Both the position numbers and the translations under genes were made by a program. Of a stretch of 64,000 nt of DNA, positions 6,105 through 60,552 are shown in pieces. Under the pieces are notes generated by a model, which was given only the letters and a program-made list of their open reading frames with translations, searched no databases and was not told where the DNA came from. The stretch covers positions 5,147 through 69,146 of the forward strand of contig CAMMMH010000001.1 in the NCBI GenBank assembly GCA_946497955.1. Direction: 5' to 3'. Numbering within the stretch: position 1 is the first letter of the stretch; each line of letters begins with the position of its first letter. The DNA comes from an uncultured Mycoplasmatota bacterium. GTDB taxonomy: Bacteria; Bacillota_I; Bacilli_A; RF39; UBA660.

Positions 6105-6653
6105 ATGTTAAGAAATAAAGATATATTAGATGAAAAAGATAAAAGATTAAGATTAGTTAGTAAAGATGTTACTTTTCCATTAAGTAAAGATGATTTAAAG
6201 ACTATAGACTTAATGGTAGAATATCTAACTAATAGTCAAATAGAAAGATTATCAGAAAAGTATAATTTAAGACCTGGTATGGGTATGGCAGCAATTCAAT
6301 TAGGTATTCCTAAAAGATATTTAGTAATTGTTCATGAAGTAGATGAAGAAGAGTTTGATACTTATATTATCTGTAATCCTAAGATTATTAGTAATTCAAG
6401 TGAAAAGATATATGTAGAAATGGGAGAAGGATGCTTATCTGTAAACCGTGAAGTTGATGGTATTGTTCCAAGATATGCTAGAGTTACCGTAGAAGGCTAT
6501 GATACTAAAGGTAATAAAATAAGAGTTCGTGCTAGAGAAGAACTTGCTATTGCCTTTCAACACGAAATAGATCATTTAAATGGGGTTATGTTTACAGATT
6601 ATATAGATCCTAAAAATCCCTATAAAGACAGTGATAAATATAGAGCAATATAA
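6105..6653 (+). CDS. def: peptide deformylase
   Basis: All three PDF motifs present: GMGMAAIQLG, EGCLS, HEIDHLNG. Confidence 0.9.
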   Translation: MLRNKDILDEKDKRLRLVSKDVTFPLSKDDLKTIDLMVEYLTNSQIERLSEKYNLRPGMGMAAIQLGIPKRYLVIVHEVDEEEFDTYIICNPKIISNSSEKIYVEMGEGCLSVNREVDGIVPRYARVTVEGYDTKGNKIRVRAREELAIAFQHEIDHLNGVMFTDYIDPKNPYKDSDKYRAI

Positions 6654-6655
6654 AA

Positions 6656-6676
6656 ACAGGACGAACCTGTTTTTTA
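6656..6676 (+). terminator. rho-independent terminator of def
   Basis: acaggacgaacctgt hairpin followed by TTTTT. Confidence 0.7.
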
Positions 6677-7438
6677 TTTTATACCTTTTTTCTTACCATA
6701 GTATAAAGCTAGTACTTGTAACTTATCATCATCAGGATCTAAATTAGGAATCTCTTCTAATACTTTCATAAATTCGGTCATTACTTCATCATAAGTAAGT
6801 TTAGCAAGAACCTCTCCATTAAGCACTTTTTCTTTATCTTCTCTACTCTTATATAAAGCATTACTTGCAATATCAATGGTTATATCATCTTTCTCTAAAT
6901 AAGAATGGAAATGTCCTCCTACAAATAAATTATTATCATAAGAAAGTACTGCTTTGTAATCTTTATTTTCAGATAAAAAGTCAAAGCTTCTCACATGACA
7001 ACAGTTTCTAAGGTTTCTTTTAAAGATATAAGCAGATTTTGTATTTTTAAATATCTCACTAGCTTTATATACTCTTATAGTTCCTAAACTAGTTTCAAGT
7101 CTATATAATAATCCGTTATCTTCTTCACTAATTACACCTGGCCATAGTGTAGCTCTATGTTCATTTTTACTATCTAACAAATCATAGATGGCATTATGAA
7201 TAGATGATTTATAATTAATTTTATAATTATTTAATACTTCTTCTAAAACTTGATGTTTTCCCTTCTTTTTTAGATAAAAATAATTGTAAAGAAGAGATGC
7301 TAAAGGATTATCATCACATTTATGATATGGCCCTAGTTTTCTATATTCACTTATAATATACTCTGCTGTTTGTTCACTTAAATTCTGATATTTAATCTCG
7401 GTATTCAAATGATATTCATCTATTTCATTAAGTTCCAT
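6674..7438 (-). CDS. hypothetical protein
   Basis: 254-aa ORF with good coding-like composition; no motif recognised. Confidence 0.4.
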   Translation of the reverse strand: MELNEIDEYHLNTEIKYQNLSEQTAEYIISEYRKLGPYHKCDDNPLASLLYNYFYLKKKGKHQVLEEVLNNYKINYKSSIHNAIYDLLDSKNEHRATLWPGVISEEDNGLLYRLETSLGTIRVYKASEIFKNTKSAYIFKRNLRNCCHVRSFDFLSENKDYKAVLSYDNNLFVGGHFHSYLEKDDITIDIASNALYKSREDKEKVLNGEVLAKLTYDEVMTEFMKVLEEIPNLDPDDDKLQVLALYYGKKKGIK

Positions 7439-7560
7439 AAATATCCCCTCTTTTAATAATTAGTATATATTATATCACATTTTACATGGATTGAAGCATT
7501 TATTTTGTTTTTAGATTTACAAAACTTCCCTTACTTGCTAGAATTAAATAGGAGGATCTT

Positions 7561-8472
7561 ATGAAGAAATACATTGTTTTATTATTTTTAATTATTTTAT
7601 TTGGATTTACTTTTGCCTTTAGACGTCCTTTATATAATTTATATAGAACTTATTTTGTTAAAGAAAATAAAGATGTAACTTTAAAGGAATCTAATGATTA
7701 TACAAGAGATTATGATTTTAATTTTGTTAAACGAACTGATGACTTTACTCCTAGTGAATATCAAGACTTATTAAATATTTATTACACTGTTTTAAACTCT
7801 GGGGTAGAAGAATTTTCATTTTACTGTCCTGATGAGTATTCTTCCTGTATAGATGATGTTGATAGTCTTGCTAATAATCAAAAGGTTCTATCAACGATAA
7901 ATAACTTTGTTCATCCTTTTAATAGTTTTAGACATTTAGAAACTAGTTATGATGATTATGGTAAAGTTACTTTAAAGATTGAACATATCTATAGTAATAG
8001 TGATATTAAATTAATTGAAGCGAAAGTTAAAGAAGTAGAAAGTGAGATATGGAATAATTCTATGAGTAATGAGGATAAGATTAAGGAAGCTCATAATTAT
8101 ATTATTAATAATAGCAAATATGATAAAGATAGAAGTGATAATAATATTGTAAGATATAAATCAGATACTGCCTATGGTACTCTTTTAGAAGGTTATAGTT
8201 TATGTGGTGGTTATACTGATGCGATGGAATTATTTTTAGAAGATATGGGGGTTAAGAGTTATAAGATATCATCAGAAAATCATGTTTGGAATGCTGTTAA
8301 TTTAGATAATGCTTGGTATCATTTAGACCTTACTTGGGATGACCCAATTACTACTGATGGTAGTGATATCTTAGAATATAATTTCTTCTTAATAACTACT
8401 AGTGAGTTAAACGAATTAGAAAATGAACAACATAACTATGATAAAAATGTTTATAGTGAGCTTGCAACTTAA
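7561..8472 (+). CDS. secreted transglutaminase-like domain protein
   Basis: N-terminal signal/TM; Cys-His-Asp core (CGGYTDAM...HVWNAV...HLDLTWDD). Confidence 0.55.
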   Translation: MKKYIVLLFLIILFGFTFAFRRPLYNLYRTYFVKENKDVTLKESNDYTRDYDFNFVKRTDDFTPSEYQDLLNIYYTVLNSGVEEFSFYCPDEYSSCIDDVDSLANNQKVLSTINNFVHPFNSFRHLETSYDDYGKVTLKIEHIYSNSDIKLIEAKVKEVESEIWNNSMSNEDKIKEAHNYIINNSKYDKDRSDNNIVRYKSDTAYGTLLEGYSLCGGYTDAMELFLEDMGVKSYKISSENHVWNAVNLDNAWYHLDLTWDDPITTDGSDILEYNFFLITTSELNELENEQHNYDKNVYSELAT

Positions 8473-8475
8473 AAA

Positions 8476-8503
8476 ATGTTAGGAGATGTTTCCTAACATT
8501 TTT
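8476..8503. terminator. bidirectional rho-independent terminator
   Basis: atgttaggagatgtttcctaacat hairpin flanked by A-run and T-run between convergent genes. Confidence 0.7.
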
Positions 8504-9383
8504 ATTTATTCTTTTCCATCATTTTCTTAGCCATCTTTAGGATAAATTTATTAGTAGCAGGTACCTTTTCTCTATCTTTCTTATAACCTAGTGTTTTTAA
8601 AGCGTTATCAGCATAATCAACACATAAATCAACTCCTGAGATAAAACTTGCCATACTTGACCCTAAAAAGACAATAGGTCCAGCCATTTCTTCACTTTCT
8701 GCAAGACGATGAGCAACTCCAGTTTCTGCTAAAAGGGCTTCTTCGCCACCAGCCATCTTTTCAAATTCATCCTTCATACCTGTATCAGTAGAGCCTGGCA
8801 TTACATTATTAACTCTAATACCCTGTTTTCCTAGTTTAATAGAGGCTTCACAGGCATACTCTGATAAACATCTTTTAGAATACATGTATGCAAAAGTTGC
8901 AGGTGATATTTTGGCAAGAGGTTCTACTACACTCTCTATTTCTTCCCAAGTACTTGCATTTACTACCTTGCTCTGTTCTTTTCTAAACTCTTTCCAGTTA
9001 AGTCCTGCCGTACTTGTTACATAGACAATACTACCACCTTTACTCATTCTCTTAGTTAAATATTCTTCTGTAATATAGAAGTTAGCAGTGTAATTACAGT
9101 TAAATGTTGTCATATAATCTGTTTTAGATCCTGACAAGCCTGCTACTCCAAAGAAACAGTCAATATGTTCTGGAAGTTTACTGAATAAATTATCTATATC
9201 TTCTTTTTTAGATAAATCACATTTTATAAAGTCCTTAATCCCCTTAACATCACATGGATTTAAGTCAACAGCATAACAACTAGCTCCTAAATCTACTAGC
9301 ATTTCTAATGTTGCCTTACCCATACCACTACTGGCTCCTGTTACTACACAAACTTTATCCTTATAACCAAAATAATCTTTCAT
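8502..9383 (-). CDS. SDR family oxidoreductase
   Basis: VVTGASSGMGKA Rossmann motif and YMYSK (YxxxK) catalytic motif. Confidence 0.75.
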   Translation of the reverse strand: MKDYFGYKDKVCVVTGASSGMGKATLEMLVDLGASCYAVDLNPCDVKGIKDFIKCDLSKKEDIDNLFSKLPEHIDCFFGVAGLSGSKTDYMTTFNCNYTANFYITEEYLTKRMSKGGSIVYVTSTAGLNWKEFRKEQSKVVNASTWEEIESVVEPLAKISPATFAYMYSKRCLSEYACEASIKLGKQGIRVNNVMPGSTDTGMKDEFEKMAGGEEALLAETGVAHRLAESEEMAGPIVFLGSSMASFISGVDLCVDYADNALKTLGYKKDREKVPATNKFILKMAKKMMEKNK

Positions 9384-9483
9384 ATAAATCCTACCTTTCT
9401 AACTTAAGTATAGAAAAACAAAAGAAAAAAGTAAATAATTTAGAGAAAATTAGATACTTTTTTACAGTTATATGATTTACCGG

Positions 9484-9577
9484 TAGAATAATTTATTACT
9501 CGCGGGCCATCTACAAGCGAGATAATCTGCAGCGTAGAATAATTTATTACTCGCGACCATCTACAAGCGAGATAATT
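9484..9577. repeat. tandem pair of ~44-nt repeats (period 51) of the same family as the type III antitoxin repeats at 53857-53949
   Basis: Two units gtagaATaATTTATTAcTCGCg..ccaTCTACAAGCGAgataat. Each has the internal 5-nt inverted pair gtaga/tctac. The motifs ATTTATTA.TCGC and AAGCGA are shared with the toxN-linked repeats. Confidence 0.6.
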
Positions 9578-9706
9578 TCCGTAAAAAGAAAATCATCTTA
9601 TATATTATATAAAGTTTCCCTCATCTAATACATTTTAATTATATCATAAATGGTACTAGCGTGTAAAGATGTTTTTGTAATTATAGTTTTTCTTCTTTAG
9701 TTTATA

Positions 9707-10423
9707 TTATCTTTTTAATAATAATTTCTTTTCTAAAGAATAATCTATAATAGAATCAATATGTGACTGAGTAGTATCAAATACAGGAATATCTAAATCT
9801 TTTTGACTAATTAACATTTCTATTTCTGTACACCCTAATATTACACCTTTAATATTGCTTTGTTTTTTCATATTATTTATTACTTCAATATAATAGTCTC
9901 TTGAGCTGTCATTAATTTCACCTTTACATAGTTCATCAAATATTATTCTATCTATTTCATTAATTTCATTTTCACTATTTGGGATACTAACCGTTAATCC
10001 GTTTTGTTTTAACCTATCTTTTAAAAAGTCTTCTCTCATTGTATAGCCAGTACCTAAAAGTCCAACATTTAATACTTCATTTTCCTTGCATTTATCAGCA
10101 ACACAGTCAGCAATATGAATTAGAGGAATATTTATTTTACTTTCTATATAATTTGCTAATTTATGCATTGTATTAGTAGCAATAACTATATAATCAGCAC
10201 CAGCATTTTCTAAAGTTTTAGCAATAGAAGCTAGTTCTACACCAATTTTATCCCATTCATTGTTTAACATTAGTTTTCTAATATCTTCAAAATTCACATT
10301 ATAAATAATCATTTTAGCACAATTTAAGCCACCACATATCGCATTAACTCCATTATTAATTCTTTCATAATAATGAATTGATGATTCGTAACTCATTCCA
10401 CCAATAAGACCAATTGTTTTCAT
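9707..10423 (-). CDS. aspartate/glutamate racemase family protein
   Basis: MKTIGLIGGMS N-terminus and GCTE active-site Cys motif. Confidence 0.75.
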   Translation of the reverse strand: MKTIGLIGGMSYESSIHYYERINNGVNAICGGLNCAKMIIYNVNFEDIRKLMLNNEWDKIGVELASIAKTLENAGADYIVIATNTMHKLANYIESKINIPLIHIADCVADKCKENEVLNVGLLGTGYTMREDFLKDRLKQNGLTVSIPNSENEINEIDRIIFDELCKGEINDSSRDYYIEVINNMKKQSNIKGVILGCTEIEMLISQKDLDIPVFDTTQSHIDSIIDYSLEKKLLLKR

Positions 10424-10596
10424 TTTTTATTTCTCCTTACCTTATTTTTGTTTTTTTTAGTTTTATCTTCATCAAAATCAATAACACCTTCCCATTCAAA
10501 AGGTTTAAGTCCTTTAACAGCTTCGCCGGCAGAAATTATTGGACGTTTTTGTTGAAAAAAGCCTTCAGGAAACTTTGTTATGTTTTTCTTTACCAT
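10420..10596 (-). CDS. small hypothetical protein (58 aa) translationally coupled to the racemase
   Basis: GGGAGG RBS 7-8 nt upstream of the ATG at 10596. Stop TGA overlaps the racemase ATG (ATGA). Below the ORF-track size cut-off; the + strand ORF 10414-10617 is probably the spurious one. Confidence 0.4.
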   Translation of the reverse strand: MVKKNITKFPEGFFQQKRPIISAGEAVKGLKPFEWEGVIDFDEDKTKKNKNKVRRNKK

Positions 10597-10692
10597 ATAA
10601 CATTACCTCCCATGTAAAATTTAATATAATTATATATTATCATTAATGTAACAAATATTCAATACGTTTTTTAGTTCTATTAACAAAATAAA

Positions 10693-11127
10693 TTATAAAT
10701 TTGTAATTGTATCTTTTGTTTTATTCTTAATATTTAAACTTATAACTAATTTTATTAATTTATCCAACATTTCATCACTTAAACGACCAATGACTTTATA
10801 ATCAATTTTATCTTTCTTAAAATAGAATAAATCATCTGCTCTAATATAACCACTTTTGTTGTTAACATTTCTACCTTTGATTTTGTTAGGTGTGATTTCT
10901 AAATTACTTTTAATTTTTAACTTTCTTTTCTTATGGTTTTCATTATGAAAACTACACATAATATTAGAAATAAAATCATATGAGTAACTCTCTATTATCC
11001 CTGCTTCGTCACTAACTACCACAAAAGAGTGTTTTGGAACAACAATACCATTATTATCTTTAAACTCTTTGACGACAATTATGTCTCCAACTCTACACAT
11101 AGATACCCTCCTTTCTTTAATATTCAC
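10693..11127 (-). CDS. PemK/MazF-fold protein (putative solitary endoribonuclease toxin-like)
   Basis: RVGDIIVV N-terminal motif and C-terminal RLSDEMLDKLIKLV resemble MazF/EndoA (KRGDV...LDDEMMDKVDEAL); no MazE-like gene upstream. Confidence 0.4.
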   Translation of the reverse strand: MNIKERRVSMCRVGDIIVVKEFKDNNGIVVPKHSFVVVSDEAGIIESYSYDFISNIMCSFHNENHKKRKLKIKSNLEITPNKIKGRNVNNKSGYIRADDLFYFKKDKIDYKVIGRLSDEMLDKLIKLVISLNIKNKTKDTITNL

Positions 11128-11195
11128 ACAAGAAGAAATACTTGTGTCTACTATATTATTAACGATATCTTTATTTTTGCTCTTTTAATTATTGC

Positions 11196-11226
11196 ACAAA
11201 AAAACTAGAGTTTTTTTACTCTAGTC
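11196..11226 (-). terminator. rho-independent terminator downstream of pheT
   Basis: actagagt/actctagt hairpin with a flanking T-run on the minus strand. Confidence 0.65.
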
Positions 11227-11237
11227 TCTTATCTTTA

Positions 11238-13604
11238 TTACTTATCTCTTAATTCTACATCTAATGTAGTAGTTACTTTCTTAATAATATTATCAAAGAC
11301 ATTCATTACTTCTTCATCTGTTAAAGTCCTATTACTATCCATAAATGTTAAGTTATAAGCGATAGATTTCTTATCATTATCAAGTTTTTCATAAACATCA
11401 AAGACATTTATTTCACTAAGTAGTCTGCCACCAGCTTTCTTAATAACTGCCTCTACTTCACTTGATGACATAGACTTAGGTACAATGAAAGCAACATCTT
11501 TAACTATTGTTGGGTACTTAGAAGTTTCTTTATATTTTAATGGTTTAACTTTCGCCATTAAAGCATTTAAAGATAACTCACAAACATACACTTCATCTTT
11601 ACAAGTTTTAGGATGAACTCTACCCATAATACCAATTCTTTTACGGTCAAGAAGGATATCTGCAGATACTCCTGGATGTAAATCCTTAACACCACTCTTA
11701 ACAAAACTATAACGGTTTTTAAAGCCTAAGTAATCAAGAATACTTTCAACAATTCCTTTCATCAAGTAAAAATCTACTTTCATTGAACCTTTCCAAGGAT
11801 TAGTAACATAGTTACCTTTCATAAGAAATGCTATCTTAGACTCTTCATTATATGATTTATCATAAGTTTTAGCAATCTCGTAGATATTTATATCTTCTAC
11901 CTTACGAGCTTTATTATAGTTATAAGTATTTAATAAAGATGGTATTAAACTTGTTCTAATAACACTCTTATCGATACTCATAGGATTAGGTAAAGTAATT
12001 CTCTCTTTTTCTTCATAATCAAAGCTAGCAGCCATAGATGGTGATACTAAAGTATAAGTCTTAACTTCATTAAGTCCTAAACTTCTAAGTCTTTTAGAAA
12101 TAGCTTTACGATATTTAACATCACCTACATACTCTCCTCTTTTTAATTCTATCTTAGGAAGAGTTCCTTTGATATTTTGATAACCATAAAGTCTACCTAT
12201 CTCTTCTGCTATATCATTAACATTAGATTCAATATCAAGTCTTCTACTAGGAATAGTTACACTAAACTTACCATCTTTAATAGTATAAGGGAAGTCTAAT
12301 CTTTCAAGTTCATGTTTCATAATATCTTCATCTATTTTAATTCCTAGCATTTTATCTACATCTATGGGATAGAACTCTACTACTTTAGGAGTTTTATCTA
12401 TTTTATCGTGTTTAACAGTACCAGATAAAATAGTAGCATTAGCATATTTTTCTAGTAAATGGCAGGCTCTATCAAGAGCATAATTAGTATATTCATAACT
12501 AAGTCCTTTACCATATCTTATACTAGCTTCACTTCTAAGGTCTAAGTGAGATGCCGTATATCTAATACTAACAGGGTCAAAGATAGCTGCTTCTATCAAG
12601 ATATTTTTAGTAGTAGGCTCAACTTCTGTATTAGCACCTCCCATAACACCAGCGATACAAACAGGTTTTTCTCCATCAGTAATAATGATATCACTATTTC
12701 TTAGAACTCTTTCTTTATCATCTAAAGTAGTAATCTCTTCTCCTTCTTTTGCATCTCTAACTAGTATTTTATCACCTAAAGTATCTTTATCAAAGAAATG
12801 AAGTGGTTGACCAAATTCTAACATAACATAATTAGATATATCTACAACATTATTTATTGGTCTCATACCAACAGAAAGTAATCTTCTTTTAATAAAGTCA
12901 GGTGACTCTTTAATTTCTACATTAGTAACCATTTTCGCTAAGTAATAAGGACACTTAGTAGTTTCTACTTCAAGTTTAAAATGATTATTAATATTATCTT
13001 TATCTTCGCTATAAGATAAATCTGGTAGTGTTACTTTTCTATTTAATATTGCAGAGATTTCATAAGCAAAACCGATATGATAGTAACAATCATTATTACG
13101 ATGTTTATGGATATCTAACTCATATAATGTATCTTCAAGTCCTAAATAAACAAGAGGGTCTTTTCCTACAGGAGCGTTGCCTTTTAACTCTTCAATACCT
13201 TTAGCATAGGTCTCATCATTTTTCTCTTCAAGACCAAGTTCATATAAAGCACAAATCATACCATTAGACTCTACTCCTCTAATCTTACTGGCTTTAATAG
13301 CAAAGTCACCTGGAAGCACTGCTCCTGGTAAGGCTACTATTACTTTAAGTCCTTCACGAACATTAGGAGCCCCACAGACTATTTGTTGTAGTTCGTCTTT
13401 TCCTACATCAACCATACATAAATGTAAATGGTCACTATTAGGATGGTCTACACAAGATTTAACTTCTCCAATAACTAGATTATCTATCTTATTAGTAATA
13501 ACTTTCTCAACATTAATACCAGCTTCTGTAATCTTAACTGCTAACTTTTCTAAATCTTGGTCAGATATATCTATATAATCTTTTACCCACTCTAAATTAA
13601 TCAT
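11238..13604 (-). CDS. pheT: phenylalanine--tRNA ligase beta subunit
   Basis: 788 aa, tRNA-binding N-domain, B3/B4 and FDX-ACB C-domain arrangement; overlaps pheS. Confidence 0.9.
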   Translation of the reverse strand: MINLEWVKDYIDISDQDLEKLAVKITEAGINVEKVITNKIDNLVIGEVKSCVDHPNSDHLHLCMVDVGKDELQQIVCGAPNVREGLKVIVALPGAVLPGDFAIKASKIRGVESNGMICALYELGLEEKNDETYAKGIEELKGNAPVGKDPLVYLGLEDTLYELDIHKHRNNDCYYHIGFAYEISAILNRKVTLPDLSYSEDKDNINNHFKLEVETTKCPYYLAKMVTNVEIKESPDFIKRRLLSVGMRPINNVVDISNYVMLEFGQPLHFFDKDTLGDKILVRDAKEGEEITTLDDKERVLRNSDIIITDGEKPVCIAGVMGGANTEVEPTTKNILIEAAIFDPVSIRYTASHLDLRSEASIRYGKGLSYEYTNYALDRACHLLEKYANATILSGTVKHDKIDKTPKVVEFYPIDVDKMLGIKIDEDIMKHELERLDFPYTIKDGKFSVTIPSRRLDIESNVNDIAEEIGRLYGYQNIKGTLPKIELKRGEYVGDVKYRKAISKRLRSLGLNEVKTYTLVSPSMAASFDYEEKERITLPNPMSIDKSVIRTSLIPSLLNTYNYNKARKVEDINIYEIAKTYDKSYNEESKIAFLMKGNYVTNPWKGSMKVDFYLMKGIVESILDYLGFKNRYSFVKSGVKDLHPGVSADILLDRKRIGIMGRVHPKTCKDEVYVCELSLNALMAKVKPLKYKETSKYPTIVKDVAFIVPKSMSSSEVEAVIKKAGGRLLSEINVFDVYEKLDNDKKSIAYNLTFMDSNRTLTDEEVMNVFDNIIKKVTTTLDVELRDK

Positions 13605-52245: not shown

Positions 52246-52791
52246 TTAACTAATAAAATATTCTTCATATATTTTATTATATCTATCTAATAATTTATTA
52301 TTTAATTTTCTAGAATTAAATAAATCTTTAAGTTCTGTATAATACCATTTTAATTGTTCATAATTATCACACTCTGTAATTAAAAACTCTTTACCTAACT
52401 TTAAATACATATTATAATCTGATATTAAGTTTTGTAATTTATCAGCTAGTTCTACTGTAAGAATATTATCATCAACGTTCTTCAAGTTATTAATAAATTT
52501 AGTTTTTCTTTTTATATAATCATCTATACTTTTATCTTCACTTAAAGATAAGACTCCATCAGCTATTTTTTTATCAAAACGTTCTAATATATCATTATAA
52601 TCATATTTAGTATCCTCAATTACATCGTGAAGATAACCAATACATATAGTATCTTCATCACAACCTATATTTTTTAGCATATTCCCAACCATAATACTAT
52701 GAAAAGATAAATCAATATCTTCTTTTATCCTTTTCATTCCTTTAAATGCCAAAAATACAAAGTGTATTACTTCTTCCTCTTTTGTATACAT
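52246..52791 (-). CDS. HD-domain hydrolase (RelA/SpoT-hydrolase-like small HD protein)
   Basis: H...YLHDVIEDT HD motif. Confidence 0.55.
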   Translation of the reverse strand: MYTKEEEVIHFVFLAFKGMKRIKEDIDLSFHSIMVGNMLKNIGCDEDTICIGYLHDVIEDTKYDYNDILERFDKKIADGVLSLSEDKSIDDYIKRKTKFINNLKNVDDNILTVELADKLQNLISDYNMYLKLGKEFLITECDNYEQLKWYYTELKDLFNSRKLNNKLLDRYNKIYEEYFIS

Positions 52792-52811
52792 AACTTCACC
52801 TTTACTTTCAT

Positions 52812-53162
52812 TTACTTATCATTAATTAGCTCAAAACAAATACCTATTAGTTTATGAGTATCTACTTCTTCTTTTCCAAATATATTATATAAAGTATCAA
52901 GAGCATTTTCTTTATTATGTACTTTTGTAGCCATTTTTAAATCAAACTTTTCTAAAAAATCATTAACATTCTCATACATTATTAAGTTTTTTACTTTTAC
53001 TAATACATATTTATTCTCATTATTCACTGACTTAAATTTTATTATATCGCCAATTCTAATTTTACTAGATTTTTCATTATATAATCTTACTTCTATATTT
53101 TTAGTTTTATTTTTCATTGCTTCAAGTACTTCATCATAAACTTTATATTCAAAATCAAACAT
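52812..53162 (-). CDS. ASCH/PUA-like small protein
   Basis: ...IEVRLYNEKSSKIRIGDIIKF... ASCH-like signature. Confidence 0.45.
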   Translation of the reverse strand: MFDFEYKVYDEVLEAMKNKTKNIEVRLYNEKSSKIRIGDIIKFKSVNNENKYVLVKVKNLIMYENVNDFLEKFDLKMATKVHNKENALDTLYNIFGKEEVDTHKLIGICFELINDK

Positions 53163-53238: not shown

Positions 53239-53706
53239 CTATTTACTTTCTTTTAACATTTTTTCCACTAAACTATCTATATTAGCAAAGAATAAATTAG
53301 TTCCTCTCTTTTTCAAACCTAACATATTTTTAAACATACTTTTGATTTCTGTTTGTAAATCAGTAGAAACCTTTAAAGGTACTCCATCAACAGTATGTAC
53401 ATGGTCAATATATTTTTCTATAGTAGGAAAAGCATTTTGCAATAAAATAGCAGAATCTCTACCAGCAATTTTTCTAATTATTATCGTATTACAAAAACCA
53501 TATTTTTTTATTTTCTTATCAATTATTTTTTGATACTTTTTCACTTTAGAACTTATAGGAATAAACCATAGTATATCTTTATCTTTAATTGTAAAATATG
53601 TTGGTCGTTTCTTTCCTCTTTCATGATTTTGCATCAAATTTTCATCATTAACAACATCAAAGTATTCATCTTTAATATGATATAAATATCCAGTTTTAAC
53701 TTTCAT
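53239..53706 (-). CDS. type III toxin-antitoxin toxin, ToxN/AbiQ family endoribonuclease
   Basis: YLYHIKDEYF...VVNDEN...KKRPTYFTI...FIPISSKVKKYQ matches the ToxN/AbiQ pattern (Y.I..Y...L..D..V..N...RPY...Y.PLSS.K.K.Q). Likely start is the ATG at 53706 behind a GGGGTG RBS; the tracked start 53790 lies in the leader. Confidence 0.65.
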   Translation of the reverse strand: MKVKTGYLYHIKDEYFDVVNDENLMQNHERGKKRPTYFTIKDKDILWFIPISSKVKKYQKIIDKKIKKYGFCNTIIIRKIAGRDSAILLQNAFPTIEKYIDHVHTVDGVPLKVSTDLQTEIKSMFKNMLGLKKRGTNLFFANIDSLVEKMLKESK

Positions 53707-53820
53707 TTTACAAACACCCCCAAACAACAAATATGACATGTAATTTAAATATACTAAATTATACTTATGTTCGTCAATATATAAATTCATTTTTTAACAA
53801 TTTAATATACAAAACAAAAA

Positions 53821-53840
53821 CTTCACCATAAATGATGAAG
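53821..53840 (-). terminator. hairpin terminator between the antitoxin repeats and the toxin gene
   Basis: cttcaccataaatgatgaag near-palindrome followed on the minus strand by TTTTTGTTTTG; an identical hairpin recurs at 54058-54077. Confidence 0.6.
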
Positions 53841-53856
53841 TTTTTAACATTTTCAA

Positions 53857-53949
53857 CCAGGATCATTTATTAGTCGCACCACCTGGAAGCGAAAAACATT
53901 GTCGACTGGAATCATTTATTAATCGCACCATCCAGAAGCGAAAAACATT
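53857..53949 (-). ncRNA. type III antitoxin RNA: two tandem 44-nt repeats (period 49 nt)
   Basis: R1 ccaggATCATTTATTAgTCGCACCAcctggAAGCGAAAAACATT and R2 ctggaATCATTTATTAaTCGCACCAtccagAAGCGAAAAACATT. The 5-nt inverted pairs differ between copies but stay complementary (ccagg/cctgg versus ctgga/tccag). The repeats sit between a promoter and a terminator directly upstream of the toxN-like gene. Confidence 0.65.
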
Positions 53950-53979
53950 TCCATGATGAGCAATCTCATCTGTGATATA

Positions 53980-54008
53980 AATATACTATCTTTTTCTAAA
54001 AATGTCAA
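53980..54008 (-). promoter_or_regulatory. sigma-A type promoter driving the antitoxin-toxin transcript
   Basis: Minus-strand TTGACA (54008-54003), 17-nt spacer, TATATT (53985-53980). Confidence 0.55.
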
Positions 54009-54057
54009 CTAGTATATAATAATAGTATATACATATCTTAAAAAAATATAATAAAAA

Positions 54058-54077
54058 CTTCACCATAAATGATGAAG
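54058..54077 (-). terminator. terminator of the upstream gene (second copy of the same hairpin)
   Basis: cttcaccataaatgatgaag followed by a T-run on the minus strand, directly after the stop at 54096. Confidence 0.55.
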
Positions 54078-54095
54078 CTTATAGTTCAAAAAAAT

Positions 54096-54896
54096 CTAAT
54101 TATTCTTTTTCTTTTTTATTAAAGTTGGTCCTTCTTCATGAAAAGCTTCAGTTACTTCTTGTCCATTTAATAGTTCTTCTTTAAATTTCTCTAAAGCTTG
54201 CTTCTGCTCACTAATATCTAATTCTGATAAAGATGAAGGCTTACTTTCTTCTTTTTTCTCTATATGTAAATTACTGTCACTCTTTAAAGCTTTTATAAAC
54301 TCTTCTTCACCACCATATTGTTCTACACCACTAGTTACAAATTCCTTCCAAGAATCCATTACTATCTTTTTTTGCTCTTCTTCAGTTAATCTAGATAATG
54401 TACCTGTCGCCTTTAATACAGTAACATCATCATAAGTATCATTAAATTTATAAAAAATCTTTCCTTTTTCATTCTTATTTTTTATCACAAAAGTATGAAC
54501 ATCTTTCTTTTTACTCTCTGATTTAATTTGAATTTTGATAGCATTAAGACCAGTAGGCTCTTTTAAATACTCTTTTTTCTCTTCATCAGTCATTTCTTCT
54601 AAAACACCAGCTACATCTAATTGACTTAAAAACATTGGTCTAGCATTATTATACTTATTTACTTCATCTAATACATAGAAAATATTATATACTATAACTA
54701 ACAATGAAATAAGAGTTTTCTTTGAAGAATCAGGGTTAAAGTGTTCAGACAATTCATTTACTCTCTTTAAATCACACTTATATCCTGCATCGGCAATATC
54801 TTTAAAAACTCTTAATGTATATGATATTTGTATACCAAAACTTGCTACTACAGTTCCTAACCAACATATAATTAAAGCTTCCATATTAATTATCAT
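54096..54896 (-). CDS. membrane-anchored hypothetical protein
   Basis: N-terminal TM, charged coiled-coil C-terminus. Confidence 0.4.
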   Translation of the reverse strand: MIINMEALIICWLGTVVASFGIQISYTLRVFKDIADAGYKCDLKRVNELSEHFNPDSSKKTLISLLVIVYNIFYVLDEVNKYNNARPMFLSQLDVAGVLEEMTDEEKKEYLKEPTGLNAIKIQIKSESKKKDVHTFVIKNKNEKGKIFYKFNDTYDDVTVLKATGTLSRLTEEEQKKIVMDSWKEFVTSGVEQYGGEEEFIKALKSDSNLHIEKKEESKPSSLSELDISEQKQALEKFKEELLNGQEVTEAFHEEGPTLIKKKKNN

Positions 54897-54969
54897 TCCT
54901 CTCTAACTATCTATATTGTTTCTTAATGGGCTTTATATTAACACTTTACCATATGTTTGTCAAACATAA

Positions 54970-55368: not shown

Positions 55369-56848
55369 GATGCCCTCCTATCTGCCTATTTCTATCCCTT
55401 GTTGTTGCCCCATCTTCTAAATCCATACCTTTTAAAATAGCATTTTTCCCATACTTCTCTTTTATCTTTAACATAGCATTTTGAAGATTATTTTCTTCCT
55501 TTAAAACTTCTCTATCATAATCTAACTTATTATTTTCATCATCTAGACTAGAAAATAAATCTAACTGTCTATATCTAACTTTACCTTTTTCTTCCTCTTC
55601 ACTTGCTAGCTTTGTAGCAGCCATAGTAACTCTTCTAACAGATAGTTTAGGATTTATAATCCTATCATATAGTTTAATCATCATTTCTGTAATTATTTTA
55701 GATGATGATGTTTTATAATCTAAATTAATAGTACCATGAGCGTGTTTGGGTATAGCCCGTCCATAATAATCTATTGTAACACTCCCATTATAATTATCAG
55801 TAACATTTTCTATATCATAACCAATAGTTAATACTAACTGTTCTGCTACTAATTTTTTAGAGACGAGGTCTAAAGCTAAAAGCTCAGCCATTTCTCTTAC
55901 TATTAACTTAGCTTTGTCATATGAGTATGGACTTTGTAAAACTTGACCACTACTGATACTTTTAGCAAGTGGTTTATAGTTTTTAATAGATTCTATTGTA
56001 CAAGGCTCATAACCCCAAGCATGGTCTATTAGAAGTTCAGCATTGACTCCAAATAATTTATATAACAAGTCTTCATTATTAATAGAACATCTTGCCACAT
56101 CACCCATTGTATACATATCATACTTCTCTAATCTTTTAGAAATACCCTTACCTACTCGCCAAATATCTGTAATAGGCACATGATGCCATAACATTTTTCT
56201 ATAAGACATTTCATTAAGTTCGGCAATTCTTACTCCAAACTTATTAGGTATGATATGTTTTGCTACTACATCCATAGCAACTTTTGCAAGAAATAAGTTA
56301 GTACCAATTCCAGCAGTCGCTGTAATACCTGTTGTATTATAAACATCTTTAATTATTTTTGTAATTAAGTCTTTAGGAGATAGTTTATAGTACTTTAAGT
56401 AATTAGTTATATCCATAAAGACTTCATCGATGGAATAAACAAATATATCTTCTTTAGCAATGTACTTTAAATAGATATTATATATTTTAGCTGAATAATC
56501 AATATAATGAGCCATTCTAGGAGGAGCGATAATTAAATCAAGTTCTTTAGTCTTATCTTTCTTTAAGATATCATCATTAACTGCTTTACCACTAAACTTT
56601 TTATAACCATTAGCTTTTCTTCTTATCATATTTATTTCTTTCACTTTACTTAAAACTTCAAAAAGTCTTGCTCTTCCTCCTATACCATACTGCTTCAACG
56701 CTGGACTTACTGCTAAACATATCGTCTTTTCTGTCCTAGATTTATCGGCAACAACAAGATTAGTTTTCAAAGGATTAAGTCCTCTTTCAACACATTCTAC
56801 CGATGCATAAAAACTCTTTAAATCAATACAGCAATATATCTTTTCCAT
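55361..56848 (-). CDS. Y-family DNA polymerase (UvrX/YqjW/DinB-like translesion polymerase)
   Basis: CIDLKSFYASVECVERGL N-terminal palm motif, little-finger domain. Confidence 0.85.
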   Translation of the reverse strand: MEKIYCCIDLKSFYASVECVERGLNPLKTNLVVADKSRTEKTICLAVSPALKQYGIGGRARLFEVLSKVKEINMIRRKANGYKKFSGKAVNDDILKKDKTKELDLIIAPPRMAHYIDYSAKIYNIYLKYIAKEDIFVYSIDEVFMDITNYLKYYKLSPKDLITKIIKDVYNTTGITATAGIGTNLFLAKVAMDVVAKHIIPNKFGVRIAELNEMSYRKMLWHHVPITDIWRVGKGISKRLEKYDMYTMGDVARCSINNEDLLYKLFGVNAELLIDHAWGYEPCTIESIKNYKPLAKSISSGQVLQSPYSYDKAKLIVREMAELLALDLVSKKLVAEQLVLTIGYDIENVTDNYNGSVTIDYYGRAIPKHAHGTINLDYKTSSSKIITEMMIKLYDRIINPKLSVRRVTMAATKLASEEEEKGKVRYRQLDLFSSLDDENNKLDYDREVLKEENNLQNAMLKIKEKYGKNAILKGMDLEDGATTRDRNRQIGGHHE

Positions 56849-56873
56849 TTAACTCACCAATATTATTTTATCA

Positions 56874-56887
56874 CGAACATTTATTCG
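56874..56887. promoter_or_regulatory. Cheo/LexA (DinR) box, CGAACATTTATTCG
   Basis: One mismatch to the Firmicutes SOS box CGAACRNRYGTTCG. Embedded in the palindrome tcacgaa-N6-ttcgtga, 26-39 nt upstream of the Y-polymerase start. Confidence 0.55.
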
Positions 56888-57034
56888 TGAAAAGCGGTTT
56901 TAGTTAAATGGAAAAAATTAACAAAATATCTTTAAATTGAAAAAGACCTAGGGCTTCTAAAGTTTCCTAGGCACGTCTCGACATATAATATACATTATCT
57001 ATAATAAAATTGCAAGGCTTTGAAAATAGTTATA

Positions 57035-58348
57035 TTATTTCTTTAATATATATGATACATTTCTACCACTATTAATTCTAACCAAAATTTCGTCATCCAC
57101 CATCTTATTCAAAATATTATTAGCTCTCGTTTTAGATATATTTAGTAAAGCTTCTACAATTTTACGATTAACTTTTTCATTTTTCTTTAGATATTCAATA
57201 ATTTGTTCTTCTTGTGTTAAATTTGAAGGTAACTTTTTTACACTATTTTCATCTATATGATTAACATTATATAAAACTACCTTAAATGTATTTTCGGTAT
57301 TTAATAATAATGGTTTCTTATCATAATTTTCATATGATTCAAATATCCTTTCTATTCCTGTACCAAAGCTTTCAACATATTTTAATCTATAAAAAACATT
57401 AGCTAAATTTGGATTACGAGACTCAGATACACCATAATATAAGTCCTCCATATTTAACCCCTTAACTAATCCTCCTAAAGAAGTAATTTCAAAGTGATCA
57501 TCAAATAATGATATTAATATACTGCCTGTAAAATTATAATCTCTATGTATAATAGCATTCAATAACGCTTCTCTAAGTGCATATTCTGGATAGTCTCTTG
57601 TATCAACCCTCTCAAGTCCTACAATTTTTCCTTTAATTCTATTAAATAGATTTAAATATTCAAAAGCTTCATTGGCTTGCTTTAAAACTGAGCCAGTAAA
57701 TTCTTTTCTATCTTTAAATTCAAGCTTATTTTTACCATTAAAAATTGCACATTTTATTGAATATGGACATTCATCTGATAAAAGCAATCCTAAATTAGTA
57801 TATCTATTATTTAAATCAATAATATTTAATGCTTTAAATTTATTATCATTAATTTCTAAATTATGTTGTTTAAAAAGACCTTTTAAATAATCAAAATGAA
57901 GATTTTGTTCTTTTGAAATATTGCTTTCAAAAGAATTACTATTGCTTTCTACTAGCATTTTTTTTATAACTTCCTCACTTGCTTGTACAGATACATTTCC
58001 ATGTCTTAAATAAACGCCTGAAGATTTTAATCCTTTATCAGATAAATAATAAGGTTTATTAGGTGCCTCACTAACTTTAACTATAATTATATCTTTATTA
58101 TTAACTTTTTCAATATAAATTTTAGTATAAAGAGTTAAATCGGATTTAATTCCTTCTCTTATCATACCGCTTAAAGCCTCTAAATCTTTTTCAGCATCTG
58201 TTAAACCTACAATCTTTCCATCATCATCAATACCAATATAAATAGTACCATCATTTGTATTGGCAAAGGCAACGATTTCTTTCTTTATATCTTTTGTAAG
58301 CTCAACTTTTAATTCTGTTTTTTGATCTTCATTATACATTATCATCAC
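57035..58348 (-). CDS. AlbA_2 (Schlafen-like) and HATPase_c_4 domain putative transcriptional regulator
   Basis: N-terminal ELKVELTKDIKKEIVAFANTNDGTIYIGIDDDGKIVGL (AlbA_2) and NAIIHRDY (HATPase_c_4) followed by a C-terminal wHTH. Confidence 0.65.
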   Translation of the reverse strand: MMIMYNEDQKTELKVELTKDIKKEIVAFANTNDGTIYIGIDDDGKIVGLTDAEKDLEALSGMIREGIKSDLTLYTKIYIEKVNNKDIIIVKVSEAPNKPYYLSDKGLKSSGVYLRHGNVSVQASEEVIKKMLVESNSNSFESNISKEQNLHFDYLKGLFKQHNLEINDNKFKALNIIDLNNRYTNLGLLLSDECPYSIKCAIFNGKNKLEFKDRKEFTGSVLKQANEAFEYLNLFNRIKGKIVGLERVDTRDYPEYALREALLNAIIHRDYNFTGSILISLFDDHFEITSLGGLVKGLNMEDLYYGVSESRNPNLANVFYRLKYVESFGTGIERIFESYENYDKKPLLLNTENTFKVVLYNVNHIDENSVKKLPSNLTQEEQIIEYLKKNEKVNRKIVEALLNISKTRANNILNKMVDDEILVRINSGRNVSYILKK

Positions 58349-58390
58349 CTAACATTATTATATACAAAGTTTAAAACATTATCAACTCTT

Positions 58391-58434
58391 TCGACCACTT
58401 TTCGACCACTTTTCGACCACTTTTCAGCAACTTT
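58391..58434. repeat. three perfect and one degenerate 11-bp tandem repeats (tcgaccacttt) in the promoter region of the AlbA_2 gene
   Basis: Directly visible; 11-bp periodicity is iteron-like. Confidence 0.85.
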
Positions 58435-58576
58435 TATCATAAAGACTAAAAATTAAATAAACAAGCTAGACGCATCCAACTTGCTCAGATAGAATCCAAA
58501 GATACACCATCGTCATTCATTTGTAATTATACTATAGCTAGTAAAATCATACAATAAGTTGATTAACTTTTTATAA

Positions 58577-60313
58577 CTACTCCTTTTTTTTAACCTTTGC
58601 TTCATCTTGACCTAAAATATTTACTTCAAACGAATCTAATTGATTAGGATTTTCTGCAACAGCCATTGCAACATCTCTAAGCATTATTGTAATAACCCCT
58701 TTTCCTTGCACATTCATATTTGTCCTAGCATTTATCATCACATTTTGCAAAAATGGTAAACAAACTTTTAAAGCATCGCTAACAGGATTTTCTGAATTAT
58801 TATTTTTAAAATAACCACATGCATTATTAAGCATAGCCGGAGAATAATATAATAAAATAGCTGGCATATCATTATATCCACTTTGATTAAACTCATAAAT
58901 TAATGTTTTATATTGCTCCATATTACCCAATATTTCATTCTCGACTGTTTGAATATCATTTTGATTATTTAAGCGCAACATTAAACATAATCTTGTAATT
59001 GTTTTCCTAACATTTTTATCTTGAGCAGTTAAACTCATTTTATTGGCTTTATAGGTTAAAAATTCGTCAAATATTTTTGTAGAATCCTCACATGTAGATA
59101 ATATTCTTGATGCTGTCATAAAATTATCAGCAGTAGGTTGATTTAAGATAACACTTCCATTTTGATTATTGATATGACCTAAAACACCACCAATATCTAG
59201 CATTGCTTCCGCAGACATTAGAACTTTTTCAAATGTCGTTAAGCTTTGTATTTTATTAAAACTATAATCTACACATTCTCCTTGAATAAATTGTCCAAGA
59301 TTAATACCATTGTTTAATACGTTTATTAGACTACTTGTACTTTCTTTGCTAAAGTTATTTAGTGATGGAAGCATATTGTATTGCAATAAATAATTTAAAA
59401 TTAAATCATGATCTACTGTTTCTATACCTTGACTTTTTATTGCATCCACCATTCTTTGACTTTTACCTAAGTCATTTATTACAACATAATATAATAATAA
59501 ATTTTCTTTTTCAGGTGTATCAAAATTACTTAAAATAAACTCTCTGATTTCATTAAATGTTTCTCTTGATAATTTATTATCTCCAACCTGTTGCTCTACA
59601 AATTTATCATACCTGTTATCTTTGATATAAAAATATAATAAAACACTAAGTATAGTTCTATCAAATTCTTTTAATTGATTAGGTTCCGCATTTTTAAAGA
59701 ATAGTTTACCATAAGTTAAATCACTGTTATCTACCCCAAAACTTTCTGGAGTAAATTCTACATCTCCAGTAAGTAAAGTTATTTCTGGATATGTTTTTAT
59801 TATATTAGCTATTATATTTAATTCATAACTATCAATATCTGCTATATTTTTATTTTTGTCAACTTGTTTTAATGCCACTTTCAATAATTCTTCTAGATTA
59901 TTTATTGGCTTATTACCGGTTTCTGTTTGATATAGCCAATCTAAATATCTATTTTTCTCAGAATTATCAGGCCTTCCATATATAACTTTATTACTATTCT
60001 TGGCTATCCAATAACCATATTCAACGTTAGTAGTAAATGCTGGTAATTGAGAAGAACGTGGAATCCAAAAAACAATTATATTAGCATTATATAATGCCTC
60101 TCTTTCCCACCAAACTTGATTATCATAGTTAAATGTTCTGTCATCATCTTCTAACTCAGGTACATAAACTATCCCATCAAACCCTAAATCTTTTAAGATT
60201 TTAACTGCTTCTTTTCTCCATGTTTTAACATCTAAACTTCGAGGAGTAGGTCCTGCTAAAAAAATTGATTTTTTTCCCTTTAATACAGGGCTATCTGAAT
60301 AATTAATTATCAT
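58577..60313 (-). CDS. large protein with N-terminal nucleoside 2-deoxyribosyltransferase-like (SLOG-superfamily) domain fused to a ~440-aa domain of unknown function
   Basis: KKSIFLAGP...ANIIVFWIP...TNVEYGYWIAK..NKVIYG matches the NDT/Rcl-like Rossmann fold, including a catalytic-type Glu. No motif was found in the remainder. GGAGGTG RBS. Confidence 0.5.
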   Translation of the reverse strand: MIINYSDSPVLKGKKSIFLAGPTPRSLDVKTWRKEAVKILKDLGFDGIVYVPELEDDDRTFNYDNQVWWEREALYNANIIVFWIPRSSQLPAFTTNVEYGYWIAKNSNKVIYGRPDNSEKNRYLDWLYQTETGNKPINNLEELLKVALKQVDKNKNIADIDSYELNIIANIIKTYPEITLLTGDVEFTPESFGVDNSDLTYGKLFFKNAEPNQLKEFDRTILSVLLYFYIKDNRYDKFVEQQVGDNKLSRETFNEIREFILSNFDTPEKENLLLYYVVINDLGKSQRMVDAIKSQGIETVDHDLILNYLLQYNMLPSLNNFSKESTSSLINVLNNGINLGQFIQGECVDYSFNKIQSLTTFEKVLMSAEAMLDIGGVLGHINNQNGSVILNQPTADNFMTASRILSTCEDSTKIFDEFLTYKANKMSLTAQDKNVRKTITRLCLMLRLNNQNDIQTVENEILGNMEQYKTLIYEFNQSGYNDMPAILLYYSPAMLNNACGYFKNNNSENPVSDALKVCLPFLQNVMINARTNMNVQGKGVITIMLRDVAMAVAENPNQLDSFEVNILGQDEAKVKKKE

Positions 60314-60465
60314 ATGGCACCTCCGTAATGATAAATATTATACACTATTTATAGTTATTTTAAAATAATATTTTTCCTATTTCTAAACACTTTTCGGACA
60401 CTTATTGTTTTTTTCACTGATATCAAAATATAACAAGACTTAAAAGCTCTAGTAAATTTCTAAAA

Positions 60466-60552
60466 TGGTGCAGGAAACGAGACTCGAACTCGCACGATTA
60501 ACTAATCACTACCCCCTCAAAGTAGTGCGTCTACCTATTCCGCCATTCCTGC
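60466..60552 (-). tRNA. tRNA-Leu (anticodon GAG), type II with long variable arm
   Basis: Hand-folded cloverleaf: acceptor stem GCAGGAA/TTCCTGC, anticodon stem CTACT/GGTAG, loop TTGAGGG, T-arm GCGAG-TTCGAGT-CTCGT, encoded CCA end. Confidence 0.8.

Follow-up and report, generated by a model that had tools for sequence, protein, structure and literature searches.

Bacterial immunity makes central use of N-glycosidase effectors that deplete NAD+ or nucleotides, including those of the TIR and SIR2 types and the effector of a retron that resembles nucleoside 2-deoxyribosyltransferase (NDT). In DSR2 and ThsA, a Rossmannoid domain that cleaves an N-glycosidic bond and a large second domain share one polypeptide, which is encoded by a solitary gene in a defense island. 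Other N-glycosidases, such as Rcl/DNPH1, which act on nucleoside monophosphates, and LOG/PpnN, are housekeeping enzymes. Aravind's group has classed NDT/Rcl domains as a superfamily, DrHyd, with SLOG and TIR as its sisters, and one DrHyd protein, gp334 of Bacillus phage G, is cited in the same work as "predicted to function as" an ADP-ribosyl cyclase, i.e., as acting on NAD+ (Iyer et al. 2022, PMC9503650). The anti-phage effector of Retron-Eco1 (Ec86) is an NDT-like N-glycosidase that hydrolyzes NAD(P)+ (PMC12673091). Here, we describe a gene in a stretch of 64,000 nucleotides (the window) from contig CAMMMH010000001.1 of an uncultured Mycoplasmatota bacterium of a low-G+C gut lineage (Bacilli/"Tenericutes"). 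The gene product joins an NDT-like domain to a domain of the family DUF6829 (NDT-DUF6829). The gene is accessory and mobile and is found in the company of defense genes.

Gene Structure and the N-Terminal Domain

The first-pass annotation of this locus, made by reading the sequence, had placed a single gene beside tRNA-Leu, and both its exact extent and this adjacency were confirmed with the open reading frame (ORF) list and ARAGORN (Table 1). Given the composition of the window (27% G+C), an uninterrupted run of 578 codons would arise by chance with a probability of ~5e-26. Full-length homologs numbered ~70, with identities ranging from 45 to 100%. Over nine orthologs, the ratio of nonsynonymous to synonymous substitution rates (dN/dS) was 0.09–0.15 for the NDT domain and 0.18–0.30 for the C-terminal domain; purifying selection acts on both. 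An AlphaFold2 (AF2) model of the whole protein, built with 57 homologs as input, was confident (predicted local distance difference test score, pLDDT, 89; predicted template modeling score, pTM, 0.87). The whole protein had no match in NCBIfam, in PADLOC, or in a direct sequence search of the PDB. A promoter-like site and a ribosome-binding site precede the gene and a terminator-like hairpin follows it (Table 1), and 33 nt at 60335–60367 are kept upstream of the 83%-identical homologs in the related loci L007 and L012–L014. These features support a self-contained transcription unit with its own promoter and terminator.

The first ~135 residues had been read as an NDT/Rcl-type domain with a conserved Glu, and this reading held. 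Pfam PF15891 (Nuc_deoxyri_tr2) matched residues 14–111 (59981–60274) at 55 bits (cutoff 30, E = 1.2e-14, profile positions 1–99 of 105) and was also matched by 46 of the 57 homologs; the classical NDT family PF05014 was weakly matched by only two of them. When the N-domain of the model was searched with Foldseek, it matched PDB entry 4MCJ, a "putative nucleoside deoxyribosyltransferase", with E = 5.7e-4 and probability 1.0 (TM-score 0.74 on the target), whereas the genuine NDTs 8qc0, 1s2l, 6qai, and 7o62 gave weaker matches. Superposition on 4MCJ yielded a root-mean-square deviation of 3.1 Å over 153 columns with 23% identity, and a PDB profile search gave E = 0.002. The N-domain thus has a three-layer alpha/beta Rossmannoid fold that superposes on a solved member of the family, and we assign it, from sequence and modeled fold, to the PF15891/DrHyd (NDT-Rcl) superfamily. 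Residue E98 is invariant in 23 diverse N-domain relatives carrying six different partner domains, as are R25, R33, E53, and E70. Glu98 occupies the Glu position of the [ST]xxExG motif, which we take to be that of the catalytic nucleophile of NDT/Rcl enzymes, and the domain looks catalytically intact as a predicted N-glycosidase. The label "SLOG-type" in the first-pass annotation is imprecise: DrHyd is placed beside SLOG and TIR, outside SLOG itself (PMC9503650), and no SLOG/LOG family of Pfam was matched by the protein at E ≤ 1.

The C-Terminal DUF6829 Domain

The remaining ~440 residues, which had been described as unplaceable, could be placed by a profile check. Pfam PF20717 (DUF6829) matched residues 213–549 (58667–59677) at 167.9 bits (cutoff 27, E = 3.8e-49, profile positions 43–390 of 408). 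The region did not map to a housekeeping enzyme family and the N-terminal match withstood the profile search, so neither outcome that the first-pass annotation had named as refuting its reading came about. All motifs of the family are present (EFDRT, INDLGK, DHD, NxGQFIQGE, DIxGxxGH, and YYxPxxxxN). Modeled alone with AF2, the domain reached a pLDDT of 90.9 and folded into a bundle of helices that ends in a small sheet. An exhaustive profile search put the size of the family at ~1,509 clusters at 50% identity. A literature search found no papers on DUF6829, PF20717, PF15891, or DUF1152.

Across the family, ~25 polar residues are nearly invariant, which argues that DUF6829 probably holds an active site or a small-molecule pocket. 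They include E216, R219, Q242, N/H280, D281, K284, H302, D303, N338, Q341, Q344, E346, D373, H380, R441, R447, Y489, Y490, and N497; E346 was kept in 175 of 178 DUF6829 domains.

DUF6829 occurs in stand-alone proteins of ~400–460 aa and in several fusions. A C-terminal DUF1152 was recurrent (seven of the 10 longer representatives scanned, plus P0081), and some proteins carry DHHA1. In others, the N-terminal part is a DSP-PTPase recognized by the models PTP-NADK, PTP-SAK, and PTP-like phytase. The DHHA1 and DSP-PTPase partners act on nucleotide or phospho-sugar esters. The fused DSP-PTPase also matches the Pfam model Tc-R-P ("Polymorphic toxin system, DSP-PTPase phosphatase"), which, together with the presence of DUF6829 in multi-kiloresidue proteins, could suggest a secreted or contact-dependent toxin-like effector pair aimed at competing cells and not at phages. 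We regard this as very improbable: on inspection, the sequence of the window protein had neither an obvious signal peptide nor a domain for toxin delivery, we saw no candidate immunity gene conserved next to it, and the giant proteins are of the NACHT/ankyrin/kinase-like kind and not RHS/CDI-type.

In the giant proteins (1.5–4.5 kiloresidues), two to three tandem DUF6829 copies form the end of a chain that contains an APH/TCAD9 kinase-like domain, NACHT, and ankyrin repeats. Some copies in the APH/TCAD9-NACHT-ankyrin proteins of 2–4.5 kiloresidues with three DUF6829 copies have the degenerate motif HALGK. At least some of the giants are eukaryotic: Perkinsus olseni and a EukProt transcriptome account for one each (the giant and eukaryotic proteins examined were P0122, P0123, P0127, and P0540). 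Perkinsus olseni proteins combine two to three DUF6829 copies with a genuine myo-inositol oxygenase (MIOX) domain and a SET-like region.

These tandem, partly degenerate copies lie C-terminal to NACHT-ankyrin regions, where proteins of the nucleotide-binding leucine-rich repeat (NLR) type bear their sensors, and a comparable arrangement might operate in the window protein. It would then be a sensor-effector of abortive infection in the manner of DSR2/ThsA, with a latent NADase in the NDT domain and a non-catalytic DUF6829 that would unleash this NADase on binding either a protein of the phage or a nucleotide signal. The combination of a small N-glycosidase domain with a helical domain of ~400 aa in a single gene with its own promoter is consistent with this, as is the higher dN/dS of the C-terminal domain. 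In one relative (L002, described below), the gene is a neighbor of CBASS, which also fits; that CBASS has its own two-transmembrane (2TM) effector. Near-invariant charged residues in very distant DUF6829 members fit an enzyme or small-molecule site better than a fast-evolving sensor of phage proteins, and in NDT relatives this slot is taken by enzymes. On balance, we consider a non-catalytic sensor unlikely.

Two identities for DUF6829 were considered and rejected. The motif (V/M)I[N/H]DLGK resembles the HDxGK of HD-fold enzymes, with H in 43 and N in 99 of ~175 domains at the HD-like position, and one eukaryotic copy scored 22.5 bits against Cas3_HD, just under the cutoff of 23.1. Membership of the HD superfamily was unsupported by the PDB profile search and by comparison (hhalign) with an HD family, HD single sequences, and MIOX, and neither profile-profile comparison nor fold search linked it significantly to an HD-fold protein; the relationship is kept as a lead. 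Inositol oxygenase, the name given to some entries in UniRef (Perkinsus), is explained by the separate MIOX domain at residues 1249–1458 of P0540.

Partner Domains of the NDT Clade

In close relatives of the N-domain (44–59% identity in the NDT domain), the C-terminal slot is filled by NUDIX, HD, Metallophos_2, dUTPase, or GNAT. A profile search of the PDB placed the NUDIX domains of these fusions nearest to ADP-ribose pyrophosphatases. Jumbo phages and plasmids also encode members of the clade, with NUDIX and HIT genes as fusion partners or neighbors, and a Streptomyces plasmid carries the operon HIT-NDT-NUDIX. The clade recurs in fusions and operons with nucleotide enzymes on phages, plasmids, and islands, so it appears to be habitually paired with a second nucleotide-processing enzyme. 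In L025, an NDT (158 aa) and a DUF6829 protein (401 aa) are encoded by separate adjacent genes, which supports a functional pairing of these two domains in particular.

A stand-alone NDT of the same family (PF15891, 156 aa), 46% identical to the window N-domain, was observed in the defense island L044. It lies in an operon between an IU_nuc_hydro protein (292 aa) and a P-loop kinase-like protein (189 aa), followed by a reverse transcriptase of 317 aa, and this set may be a retron-like or defense-associated reverse transcriptase (DRT)-like system with nucleoside-hydrolase/NDT effectors. The same locus (6514–13422) is a mobilizable element that also carries AbiA (RVT_1+HEPN_AbiA_CTD) and Abi_2.

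Mobility and Defense-Gene Context

The first-pass annotation had suggested a defense context for the gene, and the comparison of relatives strengthened this idea; the defense function itself stays a matter of interpretation. In three lineages, whose proteins are 75–83% identical, NDT-DUF6829 is cargo of small integrative mobilizable elements. The order on these elements is orf88, a large serine recombinase, a Mob_Pre relaxase, and then the cargo, with the NDT-DUF6829 gene immediately after the relaxase gene. The candidate defense genes PDC-M46A and PDC-M46B (an LmuB-like ATPase) lie on the same element immediately before NDT-DUF6829 in L015 (5502–7978) and also in L016 and L017. Paralogous ORFs of 88 and 92 aa were observed to border such serine-recombinase/Mob_Pre elements in L012 and L007.

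Upstream of a 96%-identical NDT-DUF6829 in L002 (241–3423), we identified a SLATT_4 2TM effector (180 aa) and an SMODS/AGS_C cyclase (418 aa) of the cyclic oligonucleotide-based antiphage signaling system (CBASS) type, which PADLOC recognized with E = 6e-155; a PDC-S02 YhcG/DUF1016 nuclease is also directly upstream of the gene. The first-pass annotation had proposed to look for the presence or absence of the gene in related strains, and in sibling strains the tRNA-Leu(GAG) slot proved variable. Where the flanking NAGPA gene is 91–92% identical, the content after the same tRNA differs, being an abortive-infection gene, Abi_2 (PF07751), in L032 and an unrelated ORF in L034. The metagenome scan for this slot returned nothing with a 42-nt tRNA pattern and four loci with a 28-nt pattern.

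A segment of 3.8 kb around the gene (Table 1) is ~99.8% identical to strain L001, whereas its flanks are 79–93% identical, a pattern that indicates a recent exchange. The segment runs from the 3' part of the tRNA through NDT-DUF6829 and AlbA_2 into the 5' end of the Y-family polymerase gene, with breakpoints within the tRNA and within the polymerase gene. The identical protein occurs on at least 19 contigs, always in the same arrangement and followed by a second variable slot before CmpB. Homologs are repeatedly tRNA-adjacent. There is no conserved operon partner, as the neighbors change in almost every lineage compared. By its variable slot, its carriage on integrative elements, and the defense genes adjacent to it in relatives, the gene falls in the operational class of defense-island or mobile cargo.

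Carriage directly behind a relaxase gene would also suit a protein that benefits its element, degrading immune nucleotides of the host (cyclic ADP-ribose variants, cyclic oligonucleotides, or ADP-ribose derivatives) and thereby protecting the carrier element or phage. The occurrence of the NDT clade in jumbo phages and plasmids beside or fused to NUDIX and HIT, and the fusions of DUF6829 to DHHA1 and NAD-linked PTPases, are consistent with such counter-defense, and viral domains that process ADP-ribose have been argued to counter host signals (Iyer et al. 2022, PMC9503650). Among annotated phage and plasmid collections, however, no record contained DUF6829 or the full NDT-DUF6829 architecture. 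The gene is chromosomal in the window, where the tested recombinase and relaxase families had no match in 64 kb, and its neighbors are defense and not anti-defense genes. We give counter-defense little credence.

Proposed Function

The reading that we prefer, and hold tentatively, is that NDT-DUF6829 is a single-gene mobile conflict module, most likely anti-phage, that would destroy NAD+ or a nucleotide by N-glycosidic cleavage while DUF6829 processes or gates. Judged from family chemistry, the DrHyd/NDT domain would use Glu98 to break an N-glycosidic bond, either in NAD(P)+ with release of nicotinamide, for which the Retron-Eco1 effector and the published prediction for gp334 are precedents, or in a nucleoside 5'-monophosphate as in Rcl/DNPH1. 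DUF6829 is proposed to hydrolyze or gate because the same slot holds nucleotide-processing domains (NUDIX, HD, metallophosphoesterase, or dUTPase) in relatives of the N-domain, an analogy of domain position. By hydrolyzing a phospho(di)ester in the same nucleotide, it might supply the glycosidase with substrate or remove its product; alternatively, it might bind a nucleotide ligand and gate the glycosidase. As an outcome, NAD+ or a nucleotide, either canonical or specific to the phage, would be lost irreversibly and phage replication would be blocked.

Several observations weigh against this proposal. No family among the component hidden Markov models of PADLOC-DB v2.0.0, a library of defense-system proteins, was matched by the protein at E ≤ 1, and the link to defense is one of association because no PADLOC v2 model matches. 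Left unregulated, a NADase or nucleotidase would be toxic, and among the neighborhoods compared neither an antitoxin nor a regulator was consistently linked to the gene. With regard to DUF6829, Foldseek with the model found no relative in the PDB (best E 0.11) or BFVD, a PDB profile search found nothing, and hhalign against an HD family and a MIOX domain returned a probability of ~1% or less; at the HD-like motif, the window protein reads ND (N280). The absence from annotated phage and plasmid records described above counts here as well. Finally, some contexts look metabolic: in one lineage, represented by L020 (1–7996) and L025 (1–9206), the gene lies downstream of a conserved cluster that encodes NAD synthase, a CTP_transf_like+GNAT protein of 705 aa, a radical SAM protein, and an APH-like kinase of 968 aa.

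The position downstream of NAD synthase would be natural for an ordinary enzyme of nucleotide-pool sanitation or salvage, DNPH1/Rcl-like or PpnN-like, acquired horizontally and with no role in conflict. Rcl/DNPH1 and LOG/PpnN set the example of housekeeping N-glycosidases, a related NDT-metallophosphoesterase adjoins ThrRS and flavodoxin genes, and purifying selection suits any enzyme. The distribution of NDT-DUF6829 is patchy, though, its neighborhoods are not conserved, and it is carried on integrative elements. It also alternates with Abi_2 at one slot and took part in a recent inter-strain sweep, and no NCBIfam model matched the protein. A purely metabolic role therefore seems to us improbable.

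If the preferred reading, a mobile conflict module, is right, NDT-DUF6829 would add a solitary mobile N-glycosidase effector built on the DrHyd fold to those already described. It would also open a first way into the function of DUF6829, a structural orphan with a confident predicted structure that is also present in protist NLR-like proteins. The gene is short and self-contained with clear candidate catalytic residues, which makes the hypothesis cheap to test. A more far-reaching version, which we find rather unlikely, is that DUF6829 is a fold with an enzymatic or ligand-sensing role that has so far gone unrecognized in the conflict network around NAD+/ADP-ribose or nucleotides, and that NDT-DUF6829 is a new self-contained anti-phage system. 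Given the reuse of the domain as tandem modules in the NLR-like (NACHT-ankyrin) giants of protists such as Perkinsus, DUF6829 would in that case be a cross-kingdom immune building block.

Surroundings of the Gene in the Window

The features of the locus are collected in Table 1. The tRNA-Leu(GAG) gene lies 153 nt upstream of NDT-DUF6829 on the same strand. The first-pass annotation had called NDT-DUF6829 the last gene before the tRNA; the adjacency is correct and the order is not, since NDT-DUF6829, read along its own strand, is the first gene to follow the tRNA. The annotation had also listed accessory-looking neighbors, most of which are as it described them. By Pfam, SLFN_AlbA_2+HATPase_c_4 and the IMS Y-family polymerase were clear and YolD was weak (22.6 bits, cutoff 27.5); the AlbA_2 gene is linked to NDT-DUF6829 in this species only.

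Table 1. Coordinates of the NDT-DUF6829 gene, its domains and signals, and nearby features in the window.
Feature	Position	Strand	Basis
NDT-DUF6829 gene (578 aa + stop, ATG start)	58577..60313	(-)	ORF list, two Pfam domains
NDT-like Rossmannoid domain (residues 1-135)	59909..60313	(-)	Pfam, Foldseek, invariant residues
Glu98 codon (TTNVEYG)	60020..60022	(-)	Read from sequence, alignment of 23 relatives
DUF6829 domain (residues ~163-578), all-alpha with small terminal sheet	58580..59827	(-)	Pfam, AF2
Promoter-like site (TTTAAA, 16 nt, TATAAT)	60337-60364	(-)	Consensus scan
Ribosome-binding site GGAGG, 7 nt ahead of the NDT-DUF6829 start	60320-60324	(-)	
Terminator-like hairpin, ~90 nt past the NDT-DUF6829 stop	58458..58487	(-)	Terminator scan (13 pairs, T-run), RNA fold
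Junction element, ~120 nt, between NDT-DUF6829 and AlbA_2 genes	58418..58563	(-)	Conserved copies in L002
tRNA-Leu(GAG), upstream border of the variable slot	60466..60552	(-)	ARAGORN, Rfam
Recently exchanged segment, 3.8 kb	56750..60500	.	Sliding identity profile, window/L001 alignment
Type III toxin-antitoxin-like locus: terminator hairpin	54038-54083	(-)	
Type III toxin-antitoxin-like locus: two 49-nt tandem repeats	53846-53943	(-)	
Type III toxin-antitoxin-like locus: second terminator hairpin, then 183-aa ORF	53801-53846	(-)	

The junction element consists of a promoter-like TATAGTATAAT box and two hairpins, the second of which is terminator-like (RNA fold −18.7 kcal/mol, z −2.3). The element is found where cassette-like genes adjoin one another; in the window, it stands ahead of the AlbA_2 gene. 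Its copies in L002, at 84–89% identity, lie at 2184–2292 and 3512–3628, ahead of YhcG and of NDT-DUF6829. Rfam over 52–61 kb identified tRNA only and gave no match for the element. It may represent a small RNA, the leader of an attenuator, or a scar left by recombination. Just upstream of the AlbA_2 promoter (58389–58432), the 11-nt sequence AAGTGGTCGAA is repeated three times in tandem, and a related sequence, AAGTGTCCGAAAAGTGTTTAGAAA, lies upstream of the NDT-DUF6829 promoter (~60375–60402). The two may be shared operators or may reflect paralogous 5' regions of both genes.

Further along, the locus at 53239–54083 (-) has the anatomy of a type III toxin-antitoxin system, as had been noted in the first-pass annotation, and is 92% conserved in L002. 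The N-terminal region of its 183-aa ORF looked ToxN/AbiQ-like by eye. The ORF had no Pfam or PADLOC match, with PHROG 33519 (unknown function) as its only match, and the locus had none in Rfam. A 266-aa ORF at 54096–54896 (slot 54019–54966) had no family match and is not present in the sibling strain L001, and other strains have a 331-aa ORF, or ORFs of 154 and 178 aa, between YolD and CmpB. The YolD-CmpB interval is a second variable slot of the same island. At the far end of the island (52246–53162, (-)) are two small genes of accessory appearance, one for an HD_4 protein (RelA/SpoT-type HD, 181 aa) and one for a protein that matches ASCH/DUF3850 weakly (116 aa); PADLOC matched neither.

An origin through a tRNA-targeting integrase was considered for the island and set aside: there was no direct repeat of the 3' end of the tRNA, and the recombinase, integrase, relaxase, IS110, and reverse-transcriptase queries used found no homolog in the 64-kb window. 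With neither a tested recombinase or relaxase nor a tRNA repeat, the region is therefore a chromosomal variable island, from tRNA-Leu to CmpB, and not an intact element.

Comparison with Known Systems

The closest solved structure, 4MCJ, is BDI_0649 of Parabacteroides distasonis, which has the PF15891 family and fold in common with residues ~1–150 of the window protein. It differs in being a stand-alone structural-genomics protein of 154 aa, deposited as uncharacterized and without DUF6829. The N-domain of gp334 (AEO93593.1), a DrHyd-NUDIX protein, is 44% identical to that of the window protein and has the same motifs, and both proteins pair a glycosidase-type domain with a second, putative nucleotide-processing domain. 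The partner in gp334 is NUDIX, and the protein, whose function is predicted only, is encoded by the phage among replication genes.

Rcl/DNPH1 and the classical NDTs (PF05014) belong to the same superfamily and have a Glu at the [ST]xxExG position, but they form another Pfam family and are stand-alone enzymes of housekeeping or salvage. The effector of Retron-Eco1 is the best experimental precedent for a possible mechanism of the N-domain; it differs in needing a reverse transcriptase and multicopy single-stranded DNA (msDNA) as antitoxin and sensor. The locus did not have the composition of a type II retron: the tested reverse transcriptases had no homolog in the 64-kb window by tblastn, and the neighbors of the gene are AlbA_2 and the tRNA. 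The structure of the retron effector, 8QBM, was not among the best 50 Foldseek matches in the PDB.

In outline, and with no homology claimed, NDT-DUF6829 resembles DSR2 and ThsA as a single polypeptide of two domains. Their catalytic domain is SIR2 and not DrHyd, and their partner domains are unrelated to DUF6829. The whole protein is outside the described defense systems, having neither a PADLOC match nor retron components. By analogy, NDT-DUF6829 would work most like the N-glycosidase effectors of the NDT, TIR, or SIR2 type.

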